Shown: positions 3,028 through 29,410 of the stretch, piece by piece
How positions within the stretch are numbered: the stretch's first letter is position 1
Layout of the letters: every line of letters begins with the position of its first letter
Assembly: GCA_039028615.1 (NCBI GenBank)
Contig: JBCCHT010000008.1
Span: forward strand, 192,001 to 256,000
Direction: 5' to 3'
DNA from: Myxococcota bacterium
GTDB lineage: Bacteria; Myxococcota_A; Polyangia; Nannocystales; Nannocystaceae
DNA: 64,000 nt
Notes under the pieces: model-generated
Databases searched by the model: none
Told to the model about the DNA's origin: nothing
The model's input: only the letters and a program-made list of their open reading frames with translations
Position numbers and translations under genes: made by a program

Positions 3028-4266
3028 CTACTGCTTCTGCACGGCGATTGCCGAGGCCCCGCCCAGCACGTGCAGGAACTGGTTGAAGTGGCCGCGCTCG
3101 GAAACGCGAGCCGCCTTGCGCAGCACCTCCTGCACCGATCGCGGCTCCCGACGCTGCAGCCATCGCAGCAGCCACCGCGCCCCACGAGTGTCGGGCAGCT
3201 CGAACGAGTACCCATTGGCCGCGACGATGAGCGCGTCACCGGCCTCCGCTCGCTCGAGCCACAGGTCGGGCTGCGGCGCGATGACGTCGGCGGCGGCGAG
3301 CTTTCGAAACGCCCAGGGTGCCGGCAGCACTCCGCCCGCGGTCCGAACCCGCAGCCAGTGATGCAGCTGATCGCGATGCAACGCACCCGATGCCAAGACC
3401 TCTGCGAGCCGATCGAGCGGTGCGGTGAGCTCGGGCGGCGCCTGCTGTCCGTCGGCATCGGCGGGCAAGGCCATGGTCGGCGGCACGCCCATCCCCGAGA
3501 CGGTGCGCTCGAGATGCGTCGCCAAGGTTCGATGCATGATGCCGATGCTGAACGACGCCCCCAGCCCCCCGTCGGCCGTCGCCACATGCCAGGCGTTCCG
3601 CGGCCAGTAGGCGAGATCGCGGGTGCCCAGGGTGAGCGTCTCGGCGTCGTGCTGGTACTCGGTGGCCTCGGCCGCGGCGCGGGTCCGCAGGGTGGGCACG
3701 CCGGGCCGCGGAAAGTAGTCGTCGTCCCACACCAGCATCTGCTTGTGGCCCTTGACCGCGAACGCCATGGTGTCGGTGAAGTCGCGGTGGATCCCGCCCG
3801 GCGTAGCCCCGTAGTTGCCCAAGAACAGCGCGGTGTCGGTGGTGCACACGGGTAAGCCGACGCGCCCGTAAAACCCCCGCAAGAAGGTTCGGACCCGGCG
3901 CCACGCCCCGACGTGATGCCGGGTCAGATCGTTGAAGATGACACCGTGCGGCCGCCCCTCGCTGAGTCGATCGAGCCGCCGCGCGTAGCCGGCCAGGCTG
4001 CGATCGGAGGCGCGGGGCATGAACAGCCCCAGCTCCTTACCCGACTCGAGCTGCCGATCGTCGACATAAAAGCGCGCCCGAAACTGGTCGGGCCGCTTGG
4101 CGCCCTGCACCAGCGCATCGAAGGCCTCCTTGGCCGTCAGCATCGGGCGCGTCAGCGGAGTTCGCATGACGCCGGGGCGCTGCGACCAGAGCCGATCGAC
4201 GAAGTCCGACCAGAAGGGCTCGAGGGCTAGCGATTCCACGCGTTCTTTTCTTCGGGAGGTGGCCAT
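3028..4266 (-). CDS. JmjC/cupin Fe(II)/2-oxoglutarate oxygenase (RoxA/YcfD-like) with a C-terminal winged-helix-like region
   Basis: GGIHRDFTD...AVKGHKQM...LAYWPRNAWHVA gives the HxD...H triad. Start taken at ATG 4266; GTG 4239 is an alternative. Confidence 0.8.
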   Translation of the reverse strand: MATSRRKERVESLALEPFWSDFVDRLWSQRPGVMRTPLTRPMLTAKEAFDALVQGAKRPDQFRARFYVDDRQLESGKELGLFMPRASDRSLAGYARRLDRLSEGRPHGVIFNDLTRHHVGAWRRVRTFLRGFYGRVGLPVCTTDTALFLGNYGATPGGIHRDFTDTMAFAVKGHKQMLVWDDDYFPRPGVPTLRTRAAAEATEYQHDAETLTLGTRDLAYWPRNAWHVATADGGLGASFSIGIMHRTLATHLERTVSGMGVPPTMALPADADGQQAPPELTAPLDRLAEVLASGALHRDQLHHWLRVRTAGGVLPAPWAFRKLAAADVIAPQPDLWLERAEAGDALIVAANGYSFELPDTRGARWLLRWLQRREPRSVQEVLRKAARVSERGHFNQFLHVLGGASAIAVQKQ

Positions 4267-5327
4267 GTTCGTCCGTGGGCGGCGTAGAACTCTTCGTACT
4301 CGCGGTATCGGCCCATGCCGGCCACCGCCTCGAAGGCGGACAGGCGCGTGCAGCCGTAGGGGGCCTGCACCGCGTCGGGACACAGGGTGGCGAACGCCTC
4401 GCGGAGCAGACCTTCGAGCTTCCAGTAGCGCTTGGCGGGTGTCTCGTAGCTCCGGTAAAAGGCCCGGCGAATGCGGTGGAACTGCTTTTCGGCCGCCTCG
4501 TCGATGAGCGACTCGTGGGCGAAGCGTGAGCCCACCGCCTGGCCGTAGGGGCCCAAGTGCAGGTTGTCGCCGAGAAACTTCGCGTAGCGATTGCGACCGA
4601 AGCGAACGTTCACCGACAAGCTCGTGGTGACGTACTCGATGTGGTGCCACCAGGCGGGCGGGATGTAGACCGCCTCGCCCGGCTCGAGGAAGAAATCGTA
4701 GCCGCCGACGAAGCGAACGAACTCGGCCCGGTCGCGCTCGCTGAAGTCACCGAACTGGATGAAGCTCTGGTTCTTCATCGGCAGCATGCGCAGCGACTGC
4801 GAGGGCGGCACCAGCAGGATGCGCTTGCGACCGAAGACCTGGTAGAGGATGACGTGGCGTAGATCGCCGTCGTAGTGCATGTGGGCGTAGTTGCCCTCGC
4901 CCGCGCCGAAGATCATCGACAGGACCTCGTCCTCGCCCGGCGGCATGCGAGCGTACGCGGGCAGCGTGAACAGGTCGCGCAGCATGCCCGGCGTGTCGAG
5001 CTCGCTGCACAGCAGATCGGTGGCCGGGTTTCGCTCGAGGCGTCGCAAGTAGGCGCCGAGCTTCGATGGTTTGGGGGCGACCGGGGGCGGCGGCGGCGTG
5101 CCCCGCTGGTAGGCCCTAAACATCCCGCGCGAGGCCTCGGGCTTGATCTGCACGGGCAGCGACGCGAGCCTGCGCTCGGCCTTCGCCCGCGTGTCGATGC
5201 GGCGGATCGGGTCGCCCGTGTAGAGGTTGGTCAAGATCACGGGGCGCTGCGTCGCCAGGTAGCGGCGTCGCATCTGGCCCGGGCTCGGCGCCTCGATCCG
5301 GCGAATGCGTCGGTTGGCGTTCATCAT
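4227..5327 (-). CDS. JmjC/cupin-like (FIH/Cupin_8-type) Fe(II)/2-oxoglutarate oxygenase
   Basis: YLATQRPVILT...AHMHYDGD...QVFGRKRILL...LEPGEAVYIPPAWWHHIEY. The ATG at 5327 lies 1 nt after the radical SAM stop. Confidence 0.88.
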   Translation of the reverse strand: MMNANRRIRRIEAPSPGQMRRRYLATQRPVILTNLYTGDPIRRIDTRAKAERRLASLPVQIKPEASRGMFRAYQRGTPPPPPVAPKPSKLGAYLRRLERNPATDLLCSELDTPGMLRDLFTLPAYARMPPGEDEVLSMIFGAGEGNYAHMHYDGDLRHVILYQVFGRKRILLVPPSQSLRMLPMKNQSFIQFGDFSERDRAEFVRFVGGYDFFLEPGEAVYIPPAWWHHIEYVTTSLSVNVRFGRNRYAKFLGDNLHLGPYGQAVGSRFAHESLIDEAAEKQFHRIRRAFYRSYETPAKRYWKLEGLLREAFATLCPDAVQAPYGCTRLSAFEAVAGMGRYREYEEFYAAHGRTWPPPEEKNAWNR

Positions 5328-5328
5328 C

Positions 5329-7062
5329 TCAAGCGGGGATCGCCTCGGCGCCGAGCTGCACGTGCCATGGCTGGGCCGCACGCCTTCCTGGGACCTCGAG
5401 GTCGTGCTCGAAGCGGAAGCGGTGCTCGGGGCGACTTTCGTCGGCCACGTGCGCGTGTAGGCTCGTGAGCGTGTGCCAGTGCTCGGGCTGGTCTCGCAGG
5501 CTCTCGACCACGCGGTACTCGATGGCGTCGCGCACCACGGCGGCCGCCTCGGGATCGGGCGCCCGCGCCTGGGCCCAAGCCGACAGCGCCCGACCGAAGC
5601 GCGCCACGTTCGTCATCAGGGCATGGTCGTCGAGGGCGTCGAAGAACGAGGCGGTGAAGATCTCGGTGAAGAACGCCCCGCCCGGCCGCACCTGGTACGT
5701 ATCGAAGAGCCGAGAGATCACGGGATACATCTGCTCGATGAGCATGGAGACCAGGTGGGCGCGCAGCATGTCGGCCGGGCTGAACTGCGGCGTCTGGCGG
5801 GTCACATGCGGGCTCACGTCGTCGTAGCGAAGGCCGAGCTCCTTCGCGGTGGCCCGGAACTCGGTGCCGGGCAAGACCTGCAGCGGCTGCAGAGCCATGG
5901 GCGCGCCGGGCTGGACGCCCTGGATGTAGTCGATGCCCTCGAGAAAGTCCTGCAGGGTGTCGCCGGGCAGCCCGTAGATGAGGTCCCAGCGCAGGTTGGG
6001 GTTCTCGCCCAGCTTACGGATGTTGCCTTCGAGCCGCTGCAGGCTAGTGGGGCGACCGATGGTCTTGAGGGTCTGGCGGTTGACGCTCTGCAGCCCCACG
6101 CCGAAGTGCAGGCGCCCCTGGCGGAACAGCTCGCGGCACTGGTCGGCCACCAGGTCGGGCAACATGTCGAGCTTGATCTCCGTATGAAGGTTTCCGTCGG
6201 TGAACTCTTCGAGGAAGAACCGGAAGATCTCGAAGGCTCGCTCCTTCCGCACGGTGAGGATCCCATCGGCAAAGTAGACCGACTTGATCCCCAGATCGCG
6301 CACATGAGCGAGTTCCTGCAACACTCGATCGATGTCGAAGTATCGCATTCTTCCCCCGTCGTTCTTGGGGTACTGGCAAAAGGCACAATTGACCGGACAA
6401 CCGCGAGAGGTCTCGACGATCACCGAAGGCCGCCCCTCGCGATGAAAGCGAGTCAGCAGCTCTTGTACGGTTGCCCCCAAGATCGGTGACGGGATTTCGT
6501 CGAGATTCTCGATATAGTCGCGGCGCTTGCCGCGGACGATCTCGTCCCCATTCCGAAAGGCGATGAAAGGGACACCGTGAAACCCAGCCTCGCCCGCGAG
6601 GGTCAGGCCGGTCGACGGCGCGAGGCCGAGCCACGCGAGCAAGAAGCGGCGAAACGCCTGCTCGCCTTCGCCATCGATCACGTAGTCGAGCTGCGAGTGC
6701 TGCGACAGCAGGCTCTCGCTCTCCCCGTAGGTATCGGGGCCGCCGGCCACGATGGTGAGCTCCGGGCGTAGCTTCTTGCAGACCGCCGCCACCGCCAGCA
6801 AGAAGCCCGCGTTCCAGCAGTAGAGCGATAGGCCCACGATCGTGGGCGATTGCGCGATGATCTGCCGAGCCGTGTCGATGCACGCGCGCGCGTGCGCCTG
6901 GCGATCGCGGTGGGTGACGGCGAGCACCGGGTGATGGATGAACTCGCAGCGCTCGGCCACGCGCTCGTCGAGGCACGCGTAGTTGCGCAGCAACCGGAAG
7001 GGGGTCGACGAAGCCTCGAAGCTCGGCCCCTGGCTCACGAACACGATGCGTACTGGGTCCAT
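5329..7062 (-). CDS. Cobalamin (B12)-dependent radical SAM enzyme (class B methyltransferase-like)
   Basis: N-terminal B12-binding region (IVGLSLYCWN...IVAGGPD...DYVIDGEGE), ETSRGCPVNCAFC (CxxxCxxC), GLQS, DLIYGLPGDT, LQVLPGT. Confidence 0.92.
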   Translation of the reverse strand: MDPVRIVFVSQGPSFEASSTPFRLLRNYACLDERVAERCEFIHHPVLAVTHRDRQAHARACIDTARQIIAQSPTIVGLSLYCWNAGFLLAVAAVCKKLRPELTIVAGGPDTYGESESLLSQHSQLDYVIDGEGEQAFRRFLLAWLGLAPSTGLTLAGEAGFHGVPFIAFRNGDEIVRGKRRDYIENLDEIPSPILGATVQELLTRFHREGRPSVIVETSRGCPVNCAFCQYPKNDGGRMRYFDIDRVLQELAHVRDLGIKSVYFADGILTVRKERAFEIFRFFLEEFTDGNLHTEIKLDMLPDLVADQCRELFRQGRLHFGVGLQSVNRQTLKTIGRPTSLQRLEGNIRKLGENPNLRWDLIYGLPGDTLQDFLEGIDYIQGVQPGAPMALQPLQVLPGTEFRATAKELGLRYDDVSPHVTRQTPQFSPADMLRAHLVSMLIEQMYPVISRLFDTYQVRPGGAFFTEIFTASFFDALDDHALMTNVARFGRALSAWAQARAPDPEAAAVVRDAIEYRVVESLRDQPEHWHTLTSLHAHVADESRPEHRFRFEHDLEVPGRRAAQPWHVQLGAEAIPA

Positions 7063-7093
7063 CCGCGGCACTTCAGAGCACAAAGAGAAGGGT

Positions 7094-7115
7094 GCCAGCC
7101 CCCCGGGGGGCTGGC
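7094..7115 (-). terminator. Perfect 22-bp palindrome, probable attenuating terminator or stabilising hairpin between the precursor gene and the radical SAM gene
   Basis: GCCAGCCCCCCGGGGGGCTGGC, followed on the minus strand by ACCCTTCTCTTTG. Confidence 0.55.
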
Positions 7116-7286
7116 CGAGCCATGATCTTCACGCTGGGCGCAAGCGACCATGGCGACATCGCGAAACCGCGAGGTCGATGCATGCGGTGGCAATTGCCTT
7201 CAACCCTGGAGGCTGGGCGGCGCCCCACCACGTTGCGTTGATGTAGACGTCACACTCGGGGTGTCGGCCCTCCCCGAATGACTCGC

Positions 7287-7457
7287 TCAGGCGTTCGTGA
7301 AACGGGTGGTAAACCCACCGATCAGCGTCAGCTCGAAGCTGCAGCGGTAGTAGCCGCCGGTCACCTCGAGCAACTGATCCTCGTCGAGCTCCTCGGTCTG
7401 CTGAGTCACGACCTTCTTCTTGACGACGAGCTTCTTCTGTTTGTTCTTCTTTTCCAT
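7287..7457 (-). CDS. RiPP precursor peptide, 56 aa, with a double-glycine leader (not in the ORF track)
   Basis: My translation is MEKKNKQKKLVVKKKVVTQQTEELDEDQLLEVTGG-YYRCSFELTLIGGFTTRFTNA*. An AGGA RBS precedes the ATG. The leader fits L(-12)..L(-7)..V(-4).GG. Confidence 0.88.
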   Translation of the reverse strand: MEKKNKQKKLVVKKKVVTQQTEELDEDQLLEVTGGYYRCSFELTLIGGFTTRFTNA

Positions 7458-7659
7458 CTGTTGTCCTACTGTATTTCCCGAGCTCGGTCTTCGAGCCCGA
7501 GCTGTGGAACTACATTAAAGCAGTCCCGTCGTGTCCTTGTTATGGACAGTTTGGAATGTACTTAACAGGAAAACCTGGTTCAAGTAGAAATTCGTGGAAT
7601 CGGACACATCCGGGTGTTAGTCTTCCCGCCTACCCCACGTTATTCTCGAAGTACTCGTA
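7458..7659. promoter_or_regulatory. AT-richer divergent promoter region of the RiPP cluster
   Basis: Non-coding gap between the divergent precursor and lanB genes, visibly lower in GC, with an AGCTCGG/CCGAGCT stem near 7481-7503. Confidence 0.5.
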
Positions 7660-10600
7660 ATGACAGAGTCTTTCGTCTTCCGACGGCCAATTCTCCCGCT
7701 GAGTGCCCTCATCGACGCCGGAGCTTGTCAGTCGTCAACTAAGCAAAACGAGCACCTTTCCGAGCGTATCGACAGTGAGTGGCACTATCTGCGTAATTTG
7801 GTGACGGCACCATTGCTGCAACAAGCGCTGCACATTGCCAGCCCCAATGCGCTCCAAGCCCTCGGTGAAGAGTCGAGCGACCGGAAGCAACAGAAGAAGA
7901 TCGAACGCACACTTGCGCGCTATCTGTCGCGTATGACGTGGCGATGCGAACCCTTTGGGCTATTCGCAGGCATCGGCACTGGCACAATTAGCGAACGCAC
8001 CAATCTACACCCGGGCAAAGATCTCCGCCTTCGCCGCCATACCCGGCTCGACACCGGGCTGGTCGCCGATGTCGCCGCGCGCCTGCAGTCCCACCCGGAT
8101 GTGCTCCGAACCCTACGCTACTTCCCGAATTCGAGCGTATTTCGGGTCGCCGAGGGCGTGCGACACCTCGCCGCGCGCCCGACTTCGCGCGGGCGCACCT
8201 TCGATCTCGTCGCGCTCGAGTCTTCTGCGCCCATCGTGGCTGCGCTGGACTTCTGCCGACGAGGTGTGCCCTTTGCCGCCGTGGCAGACTATGTGGCCAC
8301 CGAGTTCGAGGCCGAGCACGAAGAAGCGATCGAGTTCGTGGAATCGCTCATCGAGAGTCAGACTCTGGTGAGTGAACTCGAGATCACCCTGACCGGAATC
8401 GAGCCCACACTGGCGCTGTGCGCGGCGCTGACCGAGCACGAAATCCCGGTGGCCGCCGCCGTCTGCGAGCACCTTCGCGCGATTCATGATGCGATCGAGT
8501 CCATCGATGGCACTGCGGTCGAACGCATCACGCTCGATGCTCAGCGCACGCTCGAGCACCGTGTCCGTGAGCTGGCCGGGCCCGACTACTCGGGGCCGCT
8601 GCTTCAGGTCGATCTGCACTTCGAAGGCGCCACGCCCACGCTGGGGCGCGACGTCGTGCGACAGCTTCGACGAGTCGCCGAAGTCCTGCCGTGGTTCGGT
8701 ACGCGCCAGCGCGGGGCCGAGGCGTTCGCGACTCGCTTCATCGAGCGCTACGGCTACGCCGAGGTGCCCCTGTTGGAAGCCGCGGACGAAGACTTCGGCA
8801 TCGGGGTCGCCACGTCGCAGCGCTCCTTGTCTCCGCTGCTCGGCGGCATCGTGTTTCCCATCGCCCTGGCCGTGGACCAGCCCAGCACCTGGGCCCCGCG
8901 TCACGAGTTCCTGCTCGAGCGCCTCAGCGGGGCGCTCCGCCGCGGCGAACGGGAGATCACCATCACCGCCGAAGACGTCGAGGCGCTGAGCGAGGTCGAG
9001 GACGCTCCCCTGCCGCTGCCGTCGGCGCTGTCGGTGCGGGCCACCGTAGTGGGGTCTGCGTCGCAGGTCGAGTCGGGTAAGGCGCGGGTGCTCGTGCGCG
9101 GCGTCGAGGGGCCCTCGGGAGCGCGGTTGTTGGGCCGCTTCGCCCACGGGGACCCCAAGCTCGCCGACGAGGTTCGCGAGCATCTGCGGGCCGAAGAACG
9201 ACTCGATCCCGAGGCCATCTTCGCCGAGATCGTGCACCTGCCCGAGGGACGCCAGGGCAACGTGTTGCTCCGCCCCGTGCTGCGCGAGCACGAGATCCCC
9301 TACATGGCCCGCAGCGGAGCGCCGCTCGACAAGCAGATCCCGCTCGACGATCTCATGGTGTCCGTCTCGGGCAACTCCGTGGTGCTGCGCTCGCGTCGGC
9401 TCGGCAAGCGCATCGTGCCGCGGTTGTCGACGGCCCACAACTACGACAACCTGCGGGCGCTTCCGCTGTATCGCTTGCTGGCCGCGATCCAAGACCAAGG
9501 CTGCGAACCCCGGGTCAAGTTCGAGTGGGGCCCGCTCGAGAACTCGGAATTCCTGCCGCGAGTGGTGTACGAGCGGGCGATCCTCAAGCCGATGACGTGG
9601 CGAGTCTCGGGTCATCGGCTCTCGCAGTGGGCCGCGCTCGAGGGGCAGGCCCTGGCCGATCACACCGCCGCGCTTCGCAAGGAGCTGGGGCTTCCTCGCT
9701 GGGTCATCTTGGCCTCGGATGTCGACGATCCGCTCGCGGTCGATCTCGAAAGCCCGATCATGCGCGAGTCGTTGGCTCAGATCCTTCGGCGGCGCACCTG
9801 GGCTCGCTTCACCGAGATGCTGCCCGGCCCCGACGAGCTGTGCTCCGATGGCCATGTGCACGAAGTCGTCGTGCCCTTGGTGCGCGACACTCCGCCCCGC
9901 GAGGTGCCTCGGGTCGAGCCGGTCGAGTCGAAGCTCCGCTACTACCCGCCGGGCAGCGAGTGGCTCTACGCGCGGCTCGTCGCCGGCCGCGGGTTGCTCG
10001 ACGACGTGCTGCTCGAGTTTCTGCCCGTGGTCTCGCAGGTGTTGGGCCAGCAGCAGGCCGACCGCTGGTTCTTCGTGCGCTACAACGACCCCTCGTGGCA
10101 CCTACGGCTGCGCCTGCACGGCGAGCCCACCCGGCTGTGGAACGAGGCCCGGCCCCGCCTCGACGAGGTCGCCGCGCGGCTCGTGGCCAACGGCACGCTC
10201 AGCGACTTCGAGTACTGCACCTACGACCGCGAGCTCGAGCGCTACGGCGGCGACGCCACCACGGAGATCTGCGAGCACATCTTCAACGTCGACAGCACCG
10301 CCATGGCGCGCATCGTGGCGCACGTGAACGACAGCGGGCAGGCCGACCTTCGTTGGCACGCGGGGCTCGTGGCCACCGATCGCATGCTCGACGACCTCGG
10401 CTTCGACCGGGCGGGCAAGATCGCGGTGCTCCAGCCGCTGCGGGACCTCATGGCCAGGGAGTTCCAGCTCGAAGGCGCGCGGGGCCGCTCGCTGAGCAAG
10501 AAGTACCGGAAGCTGCGCGGCACCGTCGAAGCCCTCGTCCAAGACCGCAACCACTCCGCCGCGCTGGCGCCGATCCACCAGATCCTCGACCAGCGCTCTG

Positions 10601-10797
10601 CTGCCCTGGTTCCCCTGGGCCAGCACCTGCGCCGAGCCGAGAGCACGCAGCCGCTCGATCGAGTCGGCTGCGCGCTGCTGCACATGCAGCTCAACCGCCT
10701 CTTCGACAGCTTCCAGCGCGAGCACGAGATGGTGCTCTACGACTTCCTGTACCGCCACCATCATTCGCAGTCCAAGCGCAGGACGCCCGGTCGATGA
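7660..10797 (+). CDS. lanB: Class I lanthipeptide-type dehydratase with fused glutamylation and elimination domains
   Basis: YLSRMTWRCEPFGLFAG, LQVDL, GPSGARLLGRF, PRLSTAHNY, FLPRVVYERAIL; C-terminal EWLYARL, WFFVRYNDPSWHLRLR, YDRELERYGG, LLHMQLNRL; 1045 aa. Confidence 0.95.
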   Translation: MTESFVFRRPILPLSALIDAGACQSSTKQNEHLSERIDSEWHYLRNLVTAPLLQQALHIASPNALQALGEESSDRKQQKKIERTLARYLSRMTWRCEPFGLFAGIGTGTISERTNLHPGKDLRLRRHTRLDTGLVADVAARLQSHPDVLRTLRYFPNSSVFRVAEGVRHLAARPTSRGRTFDLVALESSAPIVAALDFCRRGVPFAAVADYVATEFEAEHEEAIEFVESLIESQTLVSELEITLTGIEPTLALCAALTEHEIPVAAAVCEHLRAIHDAIESIDGTAVERITLDAQRTLEHRVRELAGPDYSGPLLQVDLHFEGATPTLGRDVVRQLRRVAEVLPWFGTRQRGAEAFATRFIERYGYAEVPLLEAADEDFGIGVATSQRSLSPLLGGIVFPIALAVDQPSTWAPRHEFLLERLSGALRRGEREITITAEDVEALSEVEDAPLPLPSALSVRATVVGSASQVESGKARVLVRGVEGPSGARLLGRFAHGDPKLADEVREHLRAEERLDPEAIFAEIVHLPEGRQGNVLLRPVLREHEIPYMARSGAPLDKQIPLDDLMVSVSGNSVVLRSRRLGKRIVPRLSTAHNYDNLRALPLYRLLAAIQDQGCEPRVKFEWGPLENSEFLPRVVYERAILKPMTWRVSGHRLSQWAALEGQALADHTAALRKELGLPRWVILASDVDDPLAVDLESPIMRESLAQILRRRTWARFTEMLPGPDELCSDGHVHEVVVPLVRDTPPREVPRVEPVESKLRYYPPGSEWLYARLVAGRGLLDDVLLEFLPVVSQVLGQQQADRWFFVRYNDPSWHLRLRLHGEPTRLWNEARPRLDEVAARLVANGTLSDFEYCTYDRELERYGGDATTEICEHIFNVDSTAMARIVAHVNDSGQADLRWHAGLVATDRMLDDLGFDRAGKIAVLQPLRDLMAREFQLEGARGRSLSKKYRKLRGTVEALVQDRNHSAALAPIHQILDQRSAALVPLGQHLRRAESTQPLDRVGCALLHMQLNRLFDSFQREHEMVLYDFLYRHHHSQSKRRTPGR

Positions 10798-11291
10798 GCG
10801 CCGAAGCGATCGTCGTGGGCCTGCTCGGGCTGTGGGTCGTGGCCGCGGCCCTCGTGCAGGTGCCGTGGGGCTCGCGGTGGGTGCCCAACGTGGTCATGAC
10901 GCTCTTTCTGCCGGTCTGGACTCTGTTCACCGACCCGATGATCGCGTTCGACTACGGCCTGTACTGGCAATCGCGGGGCAAGGGCGCGGACGAAGACGAG
11001 TGGGAGCCAGTAGAGATCGCCGCCCCACGCGGCCTGCTGAGCGCGCTGTGGAACCCCCGCAAGCGCATGGCGGCGCGCTTCCGTGCGCTGGTGGCCCTGG
11101 TCACCGCGCTGCGCATGCAACGAAGGACCGACGCGATCCCCGACTCGGTCGCCTACCGGATCCTCGAAGAGCACGTTCGCAGCCAACGCAGCAACCGCGA
11201 TCCCTTCGTGTTCGCCATCGTCATGACCGACCCGCGCGACGACGAGGCCGAGCCCCACTTTCTCTACGTCTCCGAGCGGTGTGAATCGTGA
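10794..11291 (+). CDS. SdpA-like / HTTM-partner membrane-anchored protein
   Basis: MSAEAIVVGLLGLW (TM)...LPVWTLFTDP..FDYGLYW...W...R...LWNPRKR, resembling the PxWxFFAP...WNP motif. ATGA overlap with lanB. Confidence 0.65.
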   Translation: MSAEAIVVGLLGLWVVAAALVQVPWGSRWVPNVVMTLFLPVWTLFTDPMIAFDYGLYWQSRGKGADEDEWEPVEIAAPRGLLSALWNPRKRMAARFRALVALVTALRMQRRTDAIPDSVAYRILEEHVRSQRSNRDPFVFAIVMTDPRDDEAEPHFLYVSERCES

Positions 11292-12124
11292 TCGCTCCGA
11301 TCGACAGCACCACGGCGCTGCGCCTGGTCGAGGTGGTCCTGGGCGCGAACCTGCTGCTCGCCTCGCTCGAGTACCTCGCGCAGCATGCCGACTTTCGCCC
11401 CGGCGGCCTGGCCTACGGCGGTGCGACCTTCCGCGGCGGCGGAGGCCTGCGGCGGGTCAACCGGGCCGTCGCCTCCGCCCCCTTGTTTCCGTTGCTCAGC
11501 GCGGTGCGGGGACTGGGCGCCATCGCGTTGATGGCCGGGGTCGTGCACGGCTCCGCCCTCCCCGTGCTGATGGTCGGCCTGTGTGCGCTGACCGTGGCCA
11601 TGAACATGAGCTTCGTGTTCGGCACGGATGCCTCCGATCAGATCAGCCTGCTCGTGCTCTTCGGCCTGACGGTGGGCGCCCCCTTCCGCGACAGCGAGTC
11701 CATTCGGCTGGCCACGCTGTGGTTCATCGCGCTGCACTCGGCCATCTCGTACATGAGCGCGGGGTGGTCCAAGCTGCGGATCCGCGAGTGGCGAGACGGT
11801 CGCTTCGTTCGCAGCGTCGCCACGTGCGAGCTGTACGGCCATCCGTGGACCCAGCGGGCGCTGTCCGGCCAGGCGATGGCCGTGCTCGCATCGTGGGCGA
11901 CCATGGGGTTCGAGGTCCTGTTCTTCCTCGCGATCGTGGGCGGTCCCGTGCTCGCCCCGGCCGTGCTCGTGGTGGGGTTCCTCTTCCACCTGAGCAACGC
12001 GGTGTTCATGGGCCTCAACCGCTTCGTCACCGCGTTCCTGGCCACCTACCCCGCACTGTGGTTTTGCGGGCAACGCCCCGAGTCGTTCCTCGATCTCGCC
12101 GCCGTCTTCACCACGGGAAGCTAG
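11288..12124 (+). CDS. HTTM-domain (SdpB-like) polytopic membrane protein
   Basis: GTDASDQI, YMSAGWSKL..EWRDG, WATMGFEVLF, FHLSNAVFMGLNRF; several TM helices; GTGA overlap. Confidence 0.8.
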   Translation: MIAPIDSTTALRLVEVVLGANLLLASLEYLAQHADFRPGGLAYGGATFRGGGGLRRVNRAVASAPLFPLLSAVRGLGAIALMAGVVHGSALPVLMVGLCALTVAMNMSFVFGTDASDQISLLVLFGLTVGAPFRDSESIRLATLWFIALHSAISYMSAGWSKLRIREWRDGRFVRSVATCELYGHPWTQRALSGQAMAVLASWATMGFEVLFFLAIVGGPVLAPAVLVVGFLFHLSNAVFMGLNRFVTAFLATYPALWFCGQRPESFLDLAAVFTTGS

Positions 12125-12126
12125 CC

Positions 12127-13350
12127 ATGCCCGATACCGCCGCCAACTCTGCCCCCATGCCCGGGCTCGGTGCCCTGCTGGGCATGGACGACCTCGCGCC
12201 GTTTTTTCGCGAGCACTGGCCCGACCGTCACTGCCTCACCCACGGCTCGGTCGAGCGGGTCGGCGAGCTGGGCCACGTGCCCGAGCTGGCCAGCGTCGAT
12301 ACCCTGCTCGAGGCCGTGGACGACGAGATCCTGGTCATGCCCAACCATCTGCCGGGTGAAGGCTACGGCGGGGGTGTGCCGGTCAAATCGTCGGCCGCCC
12401 GGGCGCTGTTCGCCTCGGGGCTGACGCTGTGGATCAAGCGACTCGACAAGTCGATCCCGTTCTTTGCGCGCTTGCGCTCCCGCTTTGCCGCCGACCTGGG
12501 CGTGGCCGAGTCCGACGTGCACCCGCAGCTGTGGGTCTCCCCCAAGGGCAAGGCCACACCGCAGCACTTCGATGCCGCCGAGGTGTTCGTGTTCCAGCTG
12601 CGGGGGCACAAGCGCTGGCGCGTCGCGCCCAACGACGAGGTCCGCTACCCCATGATCGACTCGCAGCTCAGTCGCATGCAGCTGCGTCGCGCCGACACGC
12701 AGCTCGACCTGCAGCCCGGCTCGTTTCTCTACCTCCCGCGCGGTCACTGGCACCACACCGAGGCGCTGTCCGAGTCCTGGTCGATCACCCTGTTCGTCAA
12801 GGCGCCGAGCTGGCTGCGAGTGCTGCAAGAGCACCTGTTCCGCGAGCTGGGTAAAGACGAACGGTGGCGCAAGCCGGTCGCGGTGGCCTCGCCCGTGGAG
12901 GGCTATCGGCGCGAGTCGGCCGCAGAACTCGGCACACTGCTGGGCGAGCTGGTGCACGAGTTCGCACCGCAGCACGCGGATGCGATCTTCGAGGCGGCCC
13001 GCCGCGGGGTGACCGGCCGAAGCCGAGCCGCCCGCGAGCGCTCGCGGACACGGCCGTATCGACGCATCGAAGGCAGCACCGTCGAAGTCGAGCGCGGCGG
13101 CTCGATGGTGGTGGTGCGGGTGAGCTCTACCGAAGACACGATCACCGAGCTGGAGCTGTCGGCCGAGCTCGAGTCCATCGTGCGGTGGATCATCGAGCAC
13201 GAGGGCGCCTTCAGCCCGGTCGATCTCGACCCGTTGCTGCACGAGATCGCGGGCGACGCCTTCTCGCGAGCGCTGTACACCAACCAGTACCTGCCCACGC
13301 TCTTGCACGAGCTGTATGATGCCGGGCTGCTCGGTAGCGACGAAGAATGA
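12127..13350 (+). CDS. JmjC/cupin (Cupin_4, RoxA-like) oxygenase
   Basis: FFREHWP...TPQHFDAAEVFVFQLRGHKRW...LQPGSFLYLPRGHWHHTEA...APSW; C-terminal part of ORF 11281..13350. Confidence 0.9.
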   Translation: MPDTAANSAPMPGLGALLGMDDLAPFFREHWPDRHCLTHGSVERVGELGHVPELASVDTLLEAVDDEILVMPNHLPGEGYGGGVPVKSSAARALFASGLTLWIKRLDKSIPFFARLRSRFAADLGVAESDVHPQLWVSPKGKATPQHFDAAEVFVFQLRGHKRWRVAPNDEVRYPMIDSQLSRMQLRRADTQLDLQPGSFLYLPRGHWHHTEALSESWSITLFVKAPSWLRVLQEHLFRELGKDERWRKPVAVASPVEGYRRESAAELGTLLGELVHEFAPQHADAIFEAARRGVTGRSRAARERSRTRPYRRIEGSTVEVERGGSMVVVRVSSTEDTITELELSAELESIVRWIIEHEGAFSPVDLDPLLHEIAGDAFSRALYTNQYLPTLLHELYDAGLLGSDEE

Positions 13351-14513
13351 GCGGCTCCGCTCCGCTCGGCCTCTCCGCCCTGTTCGCCCCGCTCTCCGAC
13401 CGCGACTTCCTCGAGCGGCACTGGCCGCACATCGGGTTGGTGCAGCACGGCGATCCCGAGCCCTGGACCTCGCTCACCGCCGAGCCTCGACTGGCCAGCC
13501 CTCTCGCGCTCGCGCAGGTGCATGCCGGGCCCATCCAGACGCTGGGCACCACCGACGAGGGCGGTCACGCCCAGCGGGAGGTCGCACGGGAGCAGGTGCC
13601 GACGCTGGTGGAGCAGGGCAAGAGCCTGAAGTTCGACGGTGTCGATCGAACCATCGAGGAGGTCGACCGCATGTGCGAGGCGTTGGCCAGCGACCTCGGC
13701 CTCGAGCGCTCGACCTGCTACTGCCAGGCGTTCTTGTCGGGCAAGGGTGAGCGCGTCGCCCTGCACTTCGACTCGGTCGAGGTCTTCGTGCTGCAGCTGC
13801 GCGGGCGCAAACGCTGGACACATGCACGCAACGACGAGGTTCGCTTTCCCCTCAACCCCTGGGCGCCAGGGGTCCAGAGCAGCCCCGACCACGGCATCGT
13901 GGCGCCCGATGGCTTCGATCCCGACGTCGACACGGAGTCCGCCGTGTTGCGGCCGGGCTCCGCGATGTTCGTGCCCCGCGGGTGGTGGCATGGCACCGAG
14001 GCCCTCGACGACGACTGCGTCTCGCTTTCGTTCATGGTGCACACACCGACGTGGATCGAGGTTGGGTTGGCCGCCCTGCGCAAGCGCTTGATGGCCTCTG
14101 AGGCCTGGCGGCGGCCGATCGCGCACGATCTATCGAAGGCGTCGGGGTTGCTCGAGTTCGTGAACGAGGCACAGGGCATGGTCGACCGCGCACAGCAGCT
14201 GGCGGGGCAGCTGGCGGCGATGGACCTTGCACCCAGGCGACCACGGCAGCTCCACGCGGACATGCAGCTTCAGCTGCGACCGGACACGACTCTCGAGACA
14301 TTCGTCGAAGATGGGCGGGTCGTCGCCTGCATCACCCGCCCGGGCGTGAAGCGACGAATCGCCGTCGGTCCCAAAGGCGCCGCGCTGTGTCGCTTCATCG
14401 TCGAGCAGCCGGGGCCGTTTTCGGTGAGCCGTGCTCGCGATGCGGTCTCCGAGCTCGACGCCGACCGCATCCTGCTCGCGCTCATCCGCCTGGGCGCGCT
14501 TCAGCCCTCGTAG
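13347..14513 (+). CDS. JmjC/cupin (Cupin_4, RoxA-like) oxygenase, paralogue of the upstream gene
   Basis: FLERHWP...LHFDSVEVFVLQLRGRKRW...LRPGSAMFVPRGWWHGTEA...TPTW; ATGA overlap. Confidence 0.9.
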   Translation: MSGSAPLGLSALFAPLSDRDFLERHWPHIGLVQHGDPEPWTSLTAEPRLASPLALAQVHAGPIQTLGTTDEGGHAQREVAREQVPTLVEQGKSLKFDGVDRTIEEVDRMCEALASDLGLERSTCYCQAFLSGKGERVALHFDSVEVFVLQLRGRKRWTHARNDEVRFPLNPWAPGVQSSPDHGIVAPDGFDPDVDTESAVLRPGSAMFVPRGWWHGTEALDDDCVSLSFMVHTPTWIEVGLAALRKRLMASEAWRRPIAHDLSKASGLLEFVNEAQGMVDRAQQLAGQLAAMDLAPRRPRQLHADMQLQLRPDTTLETFVEDGRVVACITRPGVKRRIAVGPKGAALCRFIVEQPGPFSVSRARDAVSELDADRILLALIRLGALQPS

Positions 14514-14514
14514 C

Positions 14515-16506
14515 TCACTTGCTCGCGGGCACCAAGCACACGCAGCGCCCACGCCAAAGCTCGATCATCTCCTGCACCAACGCCTCGAACTTCGCCCCCT
14601 GGGTCGGCAGCCCGAGCTCGTCCACCAACGCCGCGATCGTCTTTTGTCCATCGGCGGCACTCAGCACCGCAAACGCCTCCACGCTGACCTGAGCGGTGGG
14701 CGGCTTGAAGTCGGGCGAGGTCAACGTCCCCACCCGATGCACGTCGCCGCGCTTGACCAGCTCTTGGTAGACCGTCAGCGACGGCACCAGCTGCGCATGG
14801 TCCCGCGTGCCGACTTCACGCTTCTCGATGATGTGCTCGCCGATCACCAACGCGTCGAGCTCGGTGGTCAAAAACGCCACCATCGCGTCATGGGCCGTCT
14901 GCACGATCGGCTCGACGGCGTTGTTGAAGGAGGTATTGAGCACGACCGGCATCCCCGAGCGCTCACCGAACGCCTCGAGCAACCCGTGAAAACGCGGGTC
15001 GACCTGCTCGCGCACCACCTGTACCCGAGCCGTGCCGTCGACATGGGTCACCGCGCCGAGCGAGGGCCGATGAGGCTCCCGCACGGGCGCGACGAAGCCC
15101 ATGAACGACAGGTCGCTGTCGTCCTCGGGGATCTCGAAGTAGGTCCGCGCCGCCGCCTCGGTGACCGCGGGCGCAAAGGGCCGATAGCCCTCGCGCAGCT
15201 TGACCGCCCGATTCACCCGATCCCGCGTCCCCGCCTCGCGCGGGTCGGCCAGGATGCTGCGGTGCCCCAGCGCTCGCGGCCCGAACTCGGAGCGCCCCTG
15301 AACCCAGCCGACGATCTTGCCCTGGTGCAGCAGCGCCGCCGTGTCGGCACAGATCTGCTTCGAGCGCCGCGCGTGCACCCACCCCGCCCAGCGGTCGATC
15401 TCCGCGGATGGATCGCCGACATCGGGCCCCAGGTACGCATGCTTCAGCCGACGCGGCGCCGCGGCGCCGTGCCCGAGCCGACGACACACCTCCAACGCTG
15501 CACCGAGGGCTCCGCCTGCGTCGTGCGAGGCTGGCTGCACGAAAATCCCGTCGAACTCGCCCGAGGCCAACAACCGACCATTGAACGTAGAGTTGTGGGC
15601 GACACCCCCGGCCAAGCACAAGTGACGCTCGCCCGTCGCTTCGCGAAAATGATCGACGATGTGCATGGCGAGGGTCTCGAGGGTGGCTTGAATGGCCGCC
15701 GCGATATTGCGATGTGCCTCGGTGAAGGCCTCGCCCCGATGACGCACATCGGCGAGCACCCCAGCCTTCTGCAGCCGCGTGACCCAGGCATAAAGCGGCG
15801 CGACTTCGTAGGCGCCCTCGGGCTTCAGCTCGTACAGCGACGCGAAGGCCTCGGCGTGCACGGAGGGATCGCCATAGGGTGCCAGCCCCATGACCTTGTA
15901 CTCGTCGAAGCGCCGATAGCCGAGCAGGCAGATGAGGTCGCGATAGAGGTCGCCAAGCGACTGCGCCCCAGTATAGGTCTGCAGGCGCTCGAGCTCGCCG
16001 CCGCCGTGGGCCCGAAACACCATGCCCGAGTTGCCGTCGCCACCACCATCGATGACGACCACCAGCGCGCGCTCGAAGCCGCTGCAGGCGTAGGTGCTAC
16101 GCGCGTGGGCGATGTGGTGATTGACGAAGTGCAGGCGCGCGGACACGTCGACGCCGAACGCATCGAGGAAGGGCTGGGCGGCATAGGTGCGGGCACCGAG
16201 TTCGTCGGCCCCGTTGGCGCGACCGACCATCTCTTGGATGGACTCGAAGTCCCACGTGGGCTTGGACCAGTTGTTGGCGACGGCATCGACCTCGTCGAGC
16301 CCCACGCCCGCGATGTCGAGCACGGCCCGGATGGCACGCTCGGGGAAGTAGTTGCCGTGCTTGACCCGGGTGAGGCGCTCGTCCTCGACCGCGGCGACGA
16401 CATCACCATCGCGCACGACCACCGCGGTGGCGTCGTGAAAGCCATATCCGAGGCGGTTGTCTTGGCCGAGCCGGCGACGACCACCATGAAATCCAAGCAC
16501 GATCAT
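14515..16506 (-). CDS. Carbamoyltransferase (NodU/CmcH/TobZ family) with a C-terminal extension
   Basis: [85 protein letters not shown]. Confidence 0.95.
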
Positions 16507-17020: not shown

Positions 17021-17560
17021 GACAAACCTCTGGGGGCAGGAGGTGTGGTGAATTGCAGAACGACCTCGCGCGCCGATGAAGGGGGCATCGACGACGGGGA
17101 CCCGCGACGCGCTGCGACCGGGGGCGGGTGCAGACGACGACCGCGATGGCACGATGGCCATGGGCTCGAGCGTGGGGGACGACGCGCCCGGGCACCGCAG
17201 ATGGGCCCGAGCTTGCGCATGATGTGCACGCGGCCGAAGGGCCGCGGGCGGCGGAAGGGTCAGGCCGCGAGCGTCAGACCCGGGCCGGAACCGAAATTGC
17301 CTGAGGAACGGTCAATTCATGCGCGAAAACAGGGATTTGGGTTTTGGTGGGGGACTTGATGGGCACAATGGCCGTGGATCACGACCGAATTCGCTTCTTT
17401 GCTTCCAAATCTAACAAACAACGTTTCAATTCAGCTGGGCTTTCACCCTCTAGTCGATCAGGGGGATCCACCTAATGGCACCCGGGGAGGCCCGGGATTC
17501 ATCGCGCGGGCGCTCCCTCTACCGCGCGGGGGTGAATGCAGCCGAAGCTATGGGGGGACA

Positions 17561-18709
17561 ATGAAATACGGATACGGATGGCTAGCGATGGTTTTGGCAC
17601 TCGCCGCGTGTGACGCGGACACGGATGCCAATGATGATGGCAACGACAGCGGCGCCGAGCAGTGCATGGTCGACGAGCCGCTGGTGGTGGATGCGCTGAG
17701 CGAGAGAAATTGTGTGCCGGCTTCAACTGATTACCAGCCGTTAACCGACGCCGAAAACGACGCCTGGCCCGCCTGTCTCCCCGATGACGGCGCCTATCAC
17801 CTCGTCGACGCCACCCCCAGCTCCATCGCGCGCGTCGAGGCGTTCGAGCAGATCATGGAGGCGCTGGCCGACGACTCGCCGAGCGCCGATGCGTTCACCG
17901 AGGCCCGCACGATCTACTCGATCGAAGAGGGCCTCGAGTCGCGGCTCGTTCGTCGCGAAGACCATCACTACGACCCGGTGCCCGAGGCCGATTGGGTCGA
18001 GGGTGTCGACGCGGACAAGCAGTGCACGGTCGAAGAGAACGTCGCGGCCTACCCCGAGCGCTGCGCGGGACCGGGACGCATCGCGCCGATCCTCAACGAG
18101 GCGTTCGCCGCCGGGCAGACCGGTGATGGCATCGCGGCCGTCAACAAGGCCCAGGTCGAGGCCGCGCTGCTGTGGTTCATCCACCTGTCGGTCTACAAAG
18201 AGGCCAACACCTGCCTGCCCAAGGGCAAGGACTGTGACTCCAGCTGGGCCTACTACACCGGTGGCCACGATCGAAACGGCGGCATCGGTCTGTCGCGCGT
18301 GGTCCAAGGCCACTCCGACCTCGCCCACCAGCGCATCTGGGACGGCTTCACCGCCTTCCGTTGCTGGCGCGAGCTGTACCCCGATGCCACGACCCTCGAG
18401 GAGCTGTCCGAAGACGGGGTCATGTTCCGCGAGATGGCCGATGCTCAGCTGAGCGAGGCCCTGTGGTACGGCTGGGCGCTCATCGTCCGCGATCGCCTCG
18501 AGCAGCTGGGCAACAGCTGCGGCGACCAAGCCGAGGCCAACTGGGCGTTCCTTCAGATCGCCGGCCCGGTGCTGAGCGAGCAAGCCGGGCGCGTCGACGC
18601 CAACGCCAACGGGTCGCTGACCTCCTTGTGGAGCCAAGCCGAGCCGCCCGCGGCCGAGGACGTGACCGCGGCCATCGCGACGATCGACTCGATCTTCGGC
18701 TGCGGCTAG
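17561..18709 (+). CDS. Lipoprotein, possibly FEA1/imelysin-like iron-uptake fold
   Basis: MKYGYGWLAMVLALAAC lipobox; CDSSWAYYTG resembles the WDExWAFY motif. The function is an inference. Confidence 0.65.
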   Translation: MKYGYGWLAMVLALAACDADTDANDDGNDSGAEQCMVDEPLVVDALSERNCVPASTDYQPLTDAENDAWPACLPDDGAYHLVDATPSSIARVEAFEQIMEALADDSPSADAFTEARTIYSIEEGLESRLVRREDHHYDPVPEADWVEGVDADKQCTVEENVAAYPERCAGPGRIAPILNEAFAAGQTGDGIAAVNKAQVEAALLWFIHLSVYKEANTCLPKGKDCDSSWAYYTGGHDRNGGIGLSRVVQGHSDLAHQRIWDGFTAFRCWRELYPDATTLEELSEDGVMFREMADAQLSEALWYGWALIVRDRLEQLGNSCGDQAEANWAFLQIAGPVLSEQAGRVDANANGSLTSLWSQAEPPAAEDVTAAIATIDSIFGCG

Positions 18710-18742
18710 CCACCGAATTCCCAATCCACCCGCATCCACTGG

Positions 18743-18782
18743 GGAGCGCTCGCACTTTGCGCGGGCGCTCCTTTCTTTTTTC
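18743..18782 (+). terminator. Intrinsic terminator
   Basis: GGAGCGCTCGC...GCGGGCGCTCC stem followed by TTTCTTTTTT. Confidence 0.8.
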
Positions 18783-18866
18783 GAAAATCGGTTAATGGAT
18801 TCGTGGCGCTGACGTGACCCACCCTCGTGAAGGCCCCTCGCGGGCCCCCACAGGACCCAACGACCC

Positions 18867-19895: not shown

Positions 19896-19919
19896 TCGCC
19901 CGCGCTGGGCGACGAGCGA

Positions 19920-29274: not shown

Positions 29275-29353
29275 GATGGAATCCCATGACCGAGGCGGGG
29301 AGAGCCGCCTCGCGCGAGTGGAGTCCCGACCACTGCCGAATCCTTTCAAGCAA

Positions 29354-29397: not shown

Positions 29398-29410
29398 AAT
29401 GGCGCCGAAA

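Follow-up and report, generated by a model that had tools for sequence, protein, structure and literature searches.

We analysed a 64-kb stretch of DNA (the window; positions 192001-256000 of contig C8 in a 12.27-Mb Myxococcota genome of 94 contigs), in which ten genes are packed within positions 3028-16506 around one small gene for a precursor peptide (Table 1). The genes were identified from a listing of open reading frames (ORFs), an analysis of guanine-plus-cytosine (GC) content at third codon positions (GC3) and domain scans. Besides the precursor, they encode a LanB dehydratase of the kind found in class I lanthipeptide pathways, four JmjC-type oxygenases, a B12-binding radical S-adenosylmethionine (SAM) enzyme, an O-carbamoyltransferase, and a small protein beside a polytopic membrane protein. 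This ten-gene cluster is real and well delimited, and it probably directs the synthesis of a peptide made by the ribosome and post-translationally modified (RiPP) that has parted company with the lanthipeptides.

Table 1. Genes and other features of the cluster, with positions counted in nucleotides from the first letter of the window.
Feature	Position	Strand	Description
JmjC1	3028-4239	-	403 aa, divergent JmjC/cupin Fe(II)/2-oxoglutarate (2OG) oxygenase
JmjC2	4227-5324	-	365 aa, Cupin_8/JmjC oxygenase, FIH/JMJD5-like type
B12-binding radical SAM enzyme, class B	5329-7062	-	577 aa
GC-rich hairpin and T-rich tail	7075-7115 (palindrome 7094-7115)	-	candidate attenuator between precursor and radical SAM genes
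Precursor peptide	7287-7457	-	56 aa, double-glycine leader and 21-aa core
Divergent intergenic spacer	7458-7659	.	GC-poorer; presumed promoters of both operons
LanB dehydratase, full-length	7660-10797	+	1045 aa, glutamylation and elimination domains
Small protein	10794-11291	+	165 aa, hydrophobic N-terminus, in no named family
HTTM/SdpB-like polytopic membrane protein	11288-12124	+	278 aa
JmjC3	12127-13350	+	407 aa, YxbC-like JmjC oxygenase with C-terminal domain
JmjC4	13347-14513	+	JmjC oxygenase, Pfam JmjC_2
O-carbamoyltransferase, NovN/GdmN type	14515-16506	-	663 aa, convergent to JmjC4

Nine of the ten gene calls are letter-for-letter identical to recorded proteins, including the start of JmjC1 at 4239; the exception is LanB, recorded (P0004) at 998 aa against 1045 aa in the present call. 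Neighbouring genes abut or overlap: LanB and the 165-aa protein share an ATGA, the 165-aa and HTTM-like proteins share a GTGA, and JmjC3 and JmjC4 overlap by 4 nt. Overlapping start and stop codons of this kind argue for co-translation. A single base (14514) separates the stop codon of JmjC4 from that of the convergent carbamoyltransferase. The spacer between the two divergent operons is AT-richer than its surroundings (GC 0.53 at 7501-8000 versus ~0.68; the window averages ~68%). No sigma-70 consensus was found in it, so the promoters of both operons are presumed to lie there from the gene layout only. On the left the cluster is bounded by an RDD/SpoIIM/DUF4129-DUF4350/MoxR/DUF58 block on the minus strand, and on the right by three ORFs without a family, followed by an extracytoplasmic function (ECF) sigma factor and unrelated genes. 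These three consecutive ORFs (17399-20948, plus strand; 436, 342 and 342 aa) lie immediately beside the cluster and have good GC3 and no match to a Pfam family; membership in the cluster, for instance as immunity or export genes, is conceivable for them.

An independent 41.5-kb Logan contig, from the same sample as the source genome, covers the whole cluster with 0 differences. The stretch occurs in a single sequencing run, the probable source, which is labelled marine metagenome; no RNA run containing it is listed. Chance adjacency and a binning artefact were considered and ruled out, as one Logan contig spans the cluster and relatives of eight of the ten genes share one longest contig size. 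No LanC, YcaO, C39 peptidase, ABC transporter or protease domain turned up in domain scans of the ORFs, which started 20 kb upstream of the window and ended ~34 kb inside it. Pfam also found no pyridine synthase or cyclodehydratase, either in the ten proteins of the cluster or in the ORFs that flank it; a TIGR03891 match proved to be LanB's own C-terminal domain. A first-pass annotation, made from the letters of the window alone, had anticipated much of this: the order and orientation of all ten genes in two tight divergent operons around an AT-richer spacer, the 1-nt gap between the convergent stops, a LanB without a LanC, YcaO or pyridine synthase, four JmjC oxygenases, an O-carbamoyltransferase, and a 21-residue core, which holds if cleavage follows LEVTGG. 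It had put the small gene in a wrong frame, at 10832-11284; the true gene, identical to a recorded protein, is the one in Table 1.

The precursor comprises a leader, MEKKNKQKKLVVKKKVVTQQTEELDEDQLLEVTGG, and, if cut at that point, the core YYRCSFELTLIGGFTTRFTNA, which contains one Cys (Cys4, beside a Ser), one Ser, five Thr, two Tyr, three Phe and two Arg. An AGGA precedes its ATG, and the gene is present as a single copy in the genome. In the closest relative of the cluster the precursor is identical at 55 of 56 positions, the last residue alone differing, while LanB is 89%, the radical SAM enzyme 88% and JmjC4 79% identical. On these figures there is good reason to take the small ORF for a genuine gene.

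A regular-expression search of 80 loci carrying relatives of LanB returned 36 leader peptides of the form KKLxLxKETL...GG at 25 of the loci, with cores containing 0-10 Cys (27 of the 36 have at least three, 3-10). The leader studied here aligns with this family, having K9, L10, L24, L29, G34 and G35 in common with it and differing by a 4-residue insertion and by KKVV in place of KETL; leader and LanB thus have one lineage in common. Double-glycine leaders have a consensus of hydrophobic residues at positions -4, -7 and -12, and the present one has V-4, L-7 and L-12 before its GG. A cut after the GG would be the natural reading of the leader, though its Pfam match is weak (E 0.037) and the cluster contains no C39 domain. 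Downstream of the precursor gene, the hairpin is a GC-rich perfect palindrome (GCCAGCCCCCC/GGGGGGCTGGC) followed by a T-rich tail. It is present in both the minimum-free-energy and the centroid folds, and a scan for terminator-like elements made four overlapping calls there, compared to 0.8 expected. The hairpin could be an attenuator that sets the ratio of precursor to enzymes.

LanB has both halves of a class I dehydratase, with matches to Lant_dehydr_N (E 2.4e-149) and Lant_dehydr_C (E 2.5e-55) far over the Pfam cut-offs, and matches MibB, MadB and NisB in the PDB. Nine residues have been listed as essential for NisB (PMC12241602). When LanB is mapped onto NisB and MadB, it retains eight of these: R91, R95, D131, D318, R493, R818, R861 and H1008, the last placed through the family alignment alone; all three elimination-domain residues of the list are among those kept. 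The ninth, a Thr (NisB T89, MadB T95), is replaced by Glu97 (window 7946-7948). At this position 116 of the 120 best homologs have Thr, one has Ala and one Met, and Glu is seen only in LanB and its 89% relative.

Apart from that relative, the nearest homologs of LanB are 35-42% identical and are found in Acidobacteriota, Myxococcota, Planctomycetota, Actinomycetota and other phyla. They were recovered by an alignment-based scan, which supplied the 80 loci; a single-sequence scan of genome contigs gave none. In eight sampled loci, LanC is present in five, a C39-ABC (ATP-binding cassette) transporter in five, and a JmjC or HTTM domain in none. The descent of LanB and leader from an ordinary lineage of class I lanthipeptides is clear. 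Two of the loci may be mentioned in their own right. An Archangium sp. contig from a metagenome-assembled genome (L049:740-10376) has a cluster of the class I lanthipeptide type. Its genes encode LanB, LanC, a luciferase-like oxidoreductase, a fusion of a B12-binding radical SAM enzyme to DUF5825, and three tandem precursors whose single-Cys cores are 16-17 aa long; LanB, a B12-binding radical SAM enzyme and Cys-poor cores therefore do occur in myxobacteria with LanC present. On the Corallococcus exercitus chromosome (L079:2000-14200), a LanB relative is accompanied by two GG-leader precursors (two Cys each), a C39-ABC transporter and neighbours of 921 and 242 aa without a Pfam family. No LanC was found among the ORFs scanned there, and it may be a further LanC-less case.

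In a six-paralog alignment, the four JmjC proteins and two paralogs upstream of the window all keep the HxD...H metal triad and the Lys expected for 2OG binding. JmjC1 is divergent, with a Pfam JmjC_2 score (23 bits) barely above the cut-off of 22, a C-terminal extension of ~110 aa, and no PDB sequence match at E<=0.01. JmjC2 matches Cupin_8 (E 1.5e-16), and its nearest structures are JMJD5 and FIH, at ~3e-10. JmjC3 matches JmjC_2 (2e-18) and, in the PDB, YxbC (7ZCC/1VRB, E 6e-20), followed by MINA53, NO66 and YcfD. JmjC4 (JmjC_2, 1.8e-16) is 34% identical to JmjC3 and likewise YxbC-like. An exhaustive search of 1.8 billion representatives returned 3708 homologs of JmjC4 at E<=1e-3, and 28 of these reach E<=1e-30. 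Three of the eight loci fetched for the best JmjC homologs also have a gene resembling a B12-binding radical SAM enzyme 3-4 kb away.

The double-stranded beta-helix fold was checked for JmjC4 only, in an AlphaFold2 model built from a 62-sequence alignment of homologs from that exhaustive search (predicted local distance difference test, pLDDT, 94.7). The best Foldseek match of this model is again YxbC (E 1e-22), then NO66, MINA53 and YcfD, all of which hydroxylate protein or peptide residues. At its C-terminus, strands (307-339) are followed by helices (341-381), the element order of a winged helix or of a RiPP recognition element (RRE). Ribosomal oxygenases end in a C-terminal winged-helix domain, and their chains align to the JmjC4 model over 410-458 columns. 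A 2025 survey describes fusions of an RRE to JmjC (PF08007) and also points out JmjC homologs of bacteria that occur in RiPP-like surroundings (PMC12710340). Pfam gave nothing relevant for the C-terminal segments of the JmjC proteins, the radical SAM enzyme or the carbamoyltransferase, and pairwise BLAST of the tails found weak likeness among JmjC3, JmjC4 and an upstream JmjC only. A complex prediction for JmjC4 with the precursor (62-row alignment) scored 0.00; it gave no answer and is evidence neither way.

The two upstream paralogs belong to a separate locus (L040:8910-15510, equal to G000:C8:180910-187510), where genes for a histidine kinase and a LuxR-type response regulator are followed by a three-gene operon for a Cupin_8/JmjC protein (254 aa), a sulfotransferase (270 aa) and a JmjC protein (390 aa). 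The 390-aa protein is 36% identical to JmjC4, and a homolog of it in the relative (P0134, 83% identical to the upstream protein) is the second-best match of JmjC4 among the 1.8 billion representatives. Between this operon and the cluster lies the MoxR/DUF58/RDD block, of ~7.5 kb. The operon may be a further tailoring operon, for hydroxylation and O-sulfation; there is no candidate for a second precursor beside it. Another oxygenase-rich cluster was seen in the same phylum (L131:4187-18170, from G136:C70, 54% GC), with three JmjC/cupin genes, a 2OG-Fe(II) oxygenase, two methyltransferases, a GNAT protein, a tetratricopeptide repeat (TPR) protein, a 1021-aa ABC transporter and a radical SAM protein 25% identical to the one studied here (without a Pfam B12-binding match). 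No precursor was identified in it.

The radical SAM enzyme of the cluster has Radical_SAM (9e-21) and B12-binding (5e-9) domains, both above the Pfam cut-offs, and a C222-x3-C226-x2-C229 (CxxxCxxC) motif that is invariant in its family alignment (A6). Its best NCBIfam match, below the cut-off, is the KedN5-family C-methyltransferase, and the nearest solved structures are TokK and CysS. As these are C-methyltransferases, methylation of an unactivated carbon is its most likely reaction, with cross-linking as the alternative. The enzyme was thus correctly recognized at first pass, but the +14 Da shift expected from it then is insecure, since BipD, a B12-binding radical SAM enzyme encoded beside a JmjC protein, is reported to form a C-C cross-link and not to methylate (PMC12707348). 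The enzyme belongs to a small subfamily found in metagenomes at 38-49% identity; a scan of metagenomes with the alignment returned eight short contigs, none with other cluster genes. On a 2.8-kb JGI metagenome contig, a Nif11-type GG-leader precursor (L140:53-446) that a frameshift seems to have split is followed, ~1.4 kb downstream, by a homolog of the radical SAM enzyme with 41% identity.

The carbamoyltransferase matches Carbam_trans_N (2e-40) and Carbam_trans_C (2e-65) over near-full profile length, in keeping with the Kae1-like N domain and YrdC-like C domain of NodU/CmcH/TobZ carbamoyltransferases, and its residues 1-661 align with NovN (9S2T, E 1e-150) and GdmN (7VYJ, E 9e-147), and in part with TobZ. 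It looks like a natural-product O-carbamoyltransferase. An RRE in its C-terminal ~100 aa was considered and dropped, as this domain is common to NovN and GdmN over its full length; the fold predicted for the last 108 aa, from a 2-row alignment, has a pLDDT of 42.

The HTTM-like protein and its small partner are harder to place. The former matches TIGR04033 (the SdpB family) at E 1e-8, its 35 bits falling far short of the cut-off of 178, and has no Pfam HTTM (PF05090) match itself, while its homolog at locus L016 approaches one (E 2.6e-5; 24.4 bits against a cut-off of 27.7). In the ESM Atlas, the nearest clusters have HTTM in 11%-32% of members, a cluster that is 84% HTTM is reached with a TM-score of 0.78, and scores of 0.82-0.86 are obtained against the N-terminal part of 600-aa alpha/beta hydrolases, a likeness that fits a LinH-like architecture and is a lead only. 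The original HTTM assignment accordingly stands as a weak one, favoured by fold likeness and the sub-threshold SdpB match, but without a Pfam HTTM match. The description of the 165-aa protein as SdpA-like is without support in its sequence: it has no Pfam or NCBIfam match at E<=10, and its leads in the Atlas are hypothetical proteins and, distantly, DUF5819. Homologs of the HTTM-like protein (29%-40% identity) occur in 10 of 60 relative genomes. At four of the loci (L015, L018, L016 and L019), a homolog of the 165-aa protein (16%-28% identical, with an FLPxW.FF.DP motif) lies directly upstream, its stop codon overlapping or abutting the next start. Judged from this pairing beside unrelated genes, the two proteins form a self-standing two-gene module inserted into the lanB operon.

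How widely is the gene set conserved? In metagenome assemblies of the European Nucleotide Archive (ENA), eight of the ten proteins have relatives (79%-98% identical) for which one and the same longest contig size, 16,178 bp, is given: JmjC2 (at least 90%), the radical SAM enzyme (88%), the precursor (98%), LanB (89%), the 165-aa protein (94%), JmjC3 (at least 90%), JmjC4 (~79%) and the carbamoyltransferase (~90%, in a protein cluster one member of which has this longest contig). It is very likely, given this equal longest contig size, that they represent one syntenic copy on a single contig. JmjC1 and the HTTM-like protein have no partner in their 90% clusters, which were the extent of the search for them. 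A second variant of the carbamoyltransferase and of JmjC4 share a longest contig of 9,827 bp. Contigs of three sequencing runs, compared at 80% likeness, yielded the 41.5-kb source contig and otherwise short motif-level matches; the relative was not found among them. In the genomes searched, the gene set has no copy at a greater distance. The combination is therefore rare, and the case for its being a functional unit is made by operon structure, not by wide co-occurrence. Conserved co-occurrence of the components, which the first-pass annotation had proposed to test, extends to one close relative but not to distant genomes.

Taken together, these observations would seem to describe a self-contained RiPP cluster that grew from a class I LanA/LanB pair, in which LanC and a C39 transporter were lost or never gained and oxidative and other tailoring enzymes were recruited; we consider this likely. 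Every step of the pathway that follows is drawn from homology. The two operons would be transcribed from the GC-poor spacer, the hairpin perhaps lowering read-through into the genes for the radical SAM enzyme, JmjC2 and JmjC1. LanB would bind the KKL...L..GG-type leader and dehydrate some of the core's one Ser and five Thr to dehydroalanine (Dha) and dehydrobutyrine (Dhb), by glutamyl-tRNA-dependent glutamylation and elimination. The four JmjC enzymes, of at least three subtypes (JmjC3 and JmjC4 YxbC/CzlI-like, JmjC2 FIH/JMJD5-like, JmjC1 divergent), might each hydroxylate one side chain of the aromatic- and Arg-rich core, and the class B radical SAM enzyme would most likely C-methylate an unactivated carbon or, alternatively, introduce a cross-link. 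A new hydroxyl could then be O-carbamoylated by the NovN/GdmN-like enzyme, possibly after removal of the leader. The HTTM-like protein and its partner may perform a membrane-associated step, either maturation or export in the manner of SdpAB or a modification of the kind suspected for LinG/LinL. For removal of the GG leader, the genome offers three C39-domain transporters outside the cluster (three C39-domain proteins are found, on contigs C18 and C1), one of which would make the cut. A peptide processed in this way should be dehydrated, carbamoylated and hydroxylated at several sites, and for the most part linear, with no more than one ring.

Several observations weigh against this reading. 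The pathway is known here from genes alone, and the cluster itself contains no transporter, protease or immunity gene. Its only other copy is in a close relative (79%-98%), so synteny there says little on functional coupling. When the other nine cluster proteins were compared by tblastn to the 80 loci with LanB relatives, three loci matched (one with a radical SAM enzyme, two with carbamoyltransferases), so the accessory genes do not travel with LanB. The radical SAM enzyme, used as a query at E<=1e-50, has no match in 400 genomes of the class (5 of the genus, 71 of the family), and JmjC3 reaches at most 32% identity over most of its length in 400 genomes of the phylum, higher values, to 40%, being short and partial. 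The rest of the cluster is absent from all eight loci fetched for homologs of the HTTM-like protein, and the pair adjoins non-RiPP genes in relatives (for signalling proteins, a peptidase and tRNA synthetases). The nearest relatives of the carbamoyltransferase act on small molecules, and its gene is on the opposite strand. Finally, Glu97 leaves a small chance that the dehydratase activity of LanB is altered or lost.

One competing explanation is that the product is still a lanthipeptide, in which Cys4 adds to a Dha or Dhb to close one (methyl)lanthionine ring, spontaneously or through a LanC-like protein encoded elsewhere, and the other enzymes are ordinary tailoring. It draws on the class I descent of LanB and leader, on the presence of LanC in five of the eight sampled relative loci and at L049, where single-Cys cores are joined with LanC, a B12-binding radical SAM enzyme and LanB, and on a core whose single Cys is next to a Ser and accompanied by five Thr. 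The genome does contain LanC-like (PF05147) matches, on contigs C14 and C1 only. These, however, have partners of their own: one is part of a 1072-aa frame, and ~1.4 kb separates the other from a further LanB-like gene (the genome's other LanB-like matches are on C1), whereas the 290-kb contig carrying the cluster has no LanC, and the single core Cys compares to 3-10 in 27 of 36 family cores. We regard a lanthipeptide product as quite unlikely. A more specific doubt concerns LanB itself, which might be non-dehydrating owing to Glu97, either inactive except for leader binding or engaged in a different aminoacyl-tRNA-dependent chemistry. The Thr it replaces is on the list of essential NisB residues (PMC12241602) and is nearly constant among homologs, with Glu confined to LanB and its 89% relative, and LanB-like enzymes that add amino acids (peptide aminoacyl-tRNA ligases, PEARLs) have been described (PMC11212132). 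Yet the other eight listed residues are intact, including the three in the elimination domain, the protein is full length and conserved (89%) in the relative, Thr is abundant in the core, and the single Ala and Met homologs indicate that the position is not absolutely fixed. Such a change of function has, in our estimate, very little probability.

It could also be that the precursor, LanB, the radical SAM enzyme and the JmjC enzymes make the peptide by themselves, and that the carbamoyltransferase, the membrane pair, or both are mere neighbours, serving a small-molecule pathway, export, immunity or membrane housekeeping. The convergent orientation of the carbamoyltransferase and its full-length alignment with the small-molecule enzymes NovN and GdmN would allow this, as would the occurrence of the pair, with overlapping codons, beside signalling and other unrelated genes in four relatives and its sub-threshold SdpB-family match. 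On the other hand, the genes of the pair lie within the operon, after lanB and before JmjC3, with overlapping codons; the carbamoyltransferase ends 1 nt from JmjC4; and the relative with the 16,178-bp longest contig has retained the carbamoyltransferase as well as the small protein. Domain scans of the window ORFs and flanks found no polyketide synthase (PKS), nonribosomal peptide synthetase (NRPS) or sugar scaffold genes nearby, and crocagin provides an instance of an O-carbamoylated RiPP (PMC10070186). We think it very unlikely that these genes are bystanders. The proposal that nine proteins mature one core is thus sound as to a RiPP cluster around one precursor, but the participation of all nine is conjecture, the pair being a stand-alone module and the carbamoyltransferase closest to small-molecule enzymes.

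Each part of the cluster can be compared to a described system. With the class I lineage of KKLxLxKETL...GG leaders (Myxococcota, Acidobacteriota, Actinomycetota), it shares a full-length LanB, a homologous leader, the GG motif and a Ser/Thr-rich core. It departs from that lineage in the absence of LanC and the C39 transporter, in its single core Cys (against 3-10 in 27 of 36), in the four JmjC enzymes, carbamoyltransferase and HTTM-like pair that it adds, and in the Thr-to-Glu replacement in LanB. A class I lanthipeptide cluster would encode LanC, and a thiopeptide or pyritide cluster YcaO or a cyclodehydratase together with a stand-alone [4+2] pyridine synthase; the cluster encodes none of these. 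Among JmjC enzymes, CzlI is reported to make Tyr from Phe in the curacozole precursor, with YxbC as its best structural match (PMC11575548), which it shares with JmjC3 and JmjC4, and the JmjC/cupin enzymes BipG and PbsQ to hydroxylate ornithine in the biphenomycins (PMC12707348, PMC12257519). In curacozole and biphenomycin (BipG/BpmG/PbsQ) clusters, as here, a JmjC Fe/2OG enzyme is encoded beside the precursor, and in biphenomycin clusters it is paired with a B12-binding radical SAM enzyme (PMC12707348). These pathways differ in having one JmjC enzyme each, no LanB, and class-defining azole-forming enzymes or a multinuclear nonheme iron oxidase (MNIO); CzlI and BipG were compared by description only.

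The first-pass annotation had also pointed to the myxobacterial crocagin pathway as a precedent for an oxygenase with a carbamoyltransferase, and aptly: the dioxygenase CgnC occurs alongside the carbamoyltransferase CgnI, which is reported to act on the hydroxylated ribosomal peptide, possibly after leader removal (PMC10070186). Both systems would thus combine Fe/2OG hydroxylation of core residues with O-carbamoylation, whereas crocagin needs the peptide-binding CgnB and CgnE, has a 3-residue core, and uses neither LanB nor a radical SAM enzyme. NovN and GdmN, whose full-length match to the carbamoyltransferase takes in the C-terminal 100 aa, and TobZ are enzymes for small molecules of the aminocoumarin, ansamycin or aminoglycoside type, in contrast to the present locus, where the only plausible acceptor encoded nearby is the peptide. 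As for the membrane pair, SdpAB is needed for making the SDP toxin (PMC5719810), and the HTTM-type LinG is needed for linaridins together with LinL and LinE (PMC9927463; bioRxiv 10.1101/2020.07.09.196543); three Streptomyces clusters combine LinE/G/L with LanB and LanC (bioRxiv 10.1101/2020.07.09.196543). Linaridin LinG/LinL(/LinE) and Bacillus subtilis SdpA/SdpB thus resemble the present arrangement of an HTTM-like polytopic protein with a small protein in a peptide-maturation operon. Unlike the linaridin case, the cluster has no alpha/beta hydrolase (LinE), its SdpB match is far below the cut-off, and the module is also found in non-RiPP contexts; LinL, LinG and SdpA were compared by description only, and the cluster is not assignable to the linaridins.

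Since every enzyme type has RiPP precedent, and LanB and the leader come from the class I lanthipeptide lineage, the cluster is an uncharacterised variant in its combination of enzymes, and the new RiPP class announced at first pass is not shown. The narrower statement that the combination is not a described class does agree with the literature, in that a search of full-text papers (a scope outside which lie subscription papers, supplements and MIBiG) found no published description of this gene set. A bolder version, which we hold to be unlikely, would make this a new RiPP family after all. Dha and Dhb would serve not for lanthionine formation but in combination with up to four site-specific JmjC hydroxylations, the hydroxyls being O-carbamoylated or adding to Dha/Dhb as ether cross-links. 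The HTTM-like enzyme and its partner would carry out an undescribed modification or leader removal, the lineage-specific Thr-to-Glu change in LanB may mark altered chemistry, and the pathway could extend to the operon 8 kb upstream, with its two JmjC genes and its sulfotransferase gene.

The cluster is experimentally tractable, and a claim to a new class awaits the structure of its product. If the reading of a linear, oxidised peptide is correct, a class I lanthipeptide dehydratase and leader can be reused without a cyclase, as an entry to heavily oxidised linear peptides, and ribosomal peptide O-carbamoylation would have its second case. It would also yield four new peptide-residue hydroxylases of three JmjC subtypes acting on a defined 21-residue substrate, which are possible biocatalysts, and a tractable setting for finding out what the widespread pair of small and HTTM-like protein does, with its relatives in linaridin and SDP maturation. 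In the Thr-to-Glu variant of LanB, moreover, nature itself puts a supposedly essential residue to the test. Elsewhere in the window, a 1328-aa ORF (25438-29424, minus strand) fuses an N-terminal part resembling FAD amine oxidases/desaturases to a polyprenyl synthetase domain, an unusual fusion.

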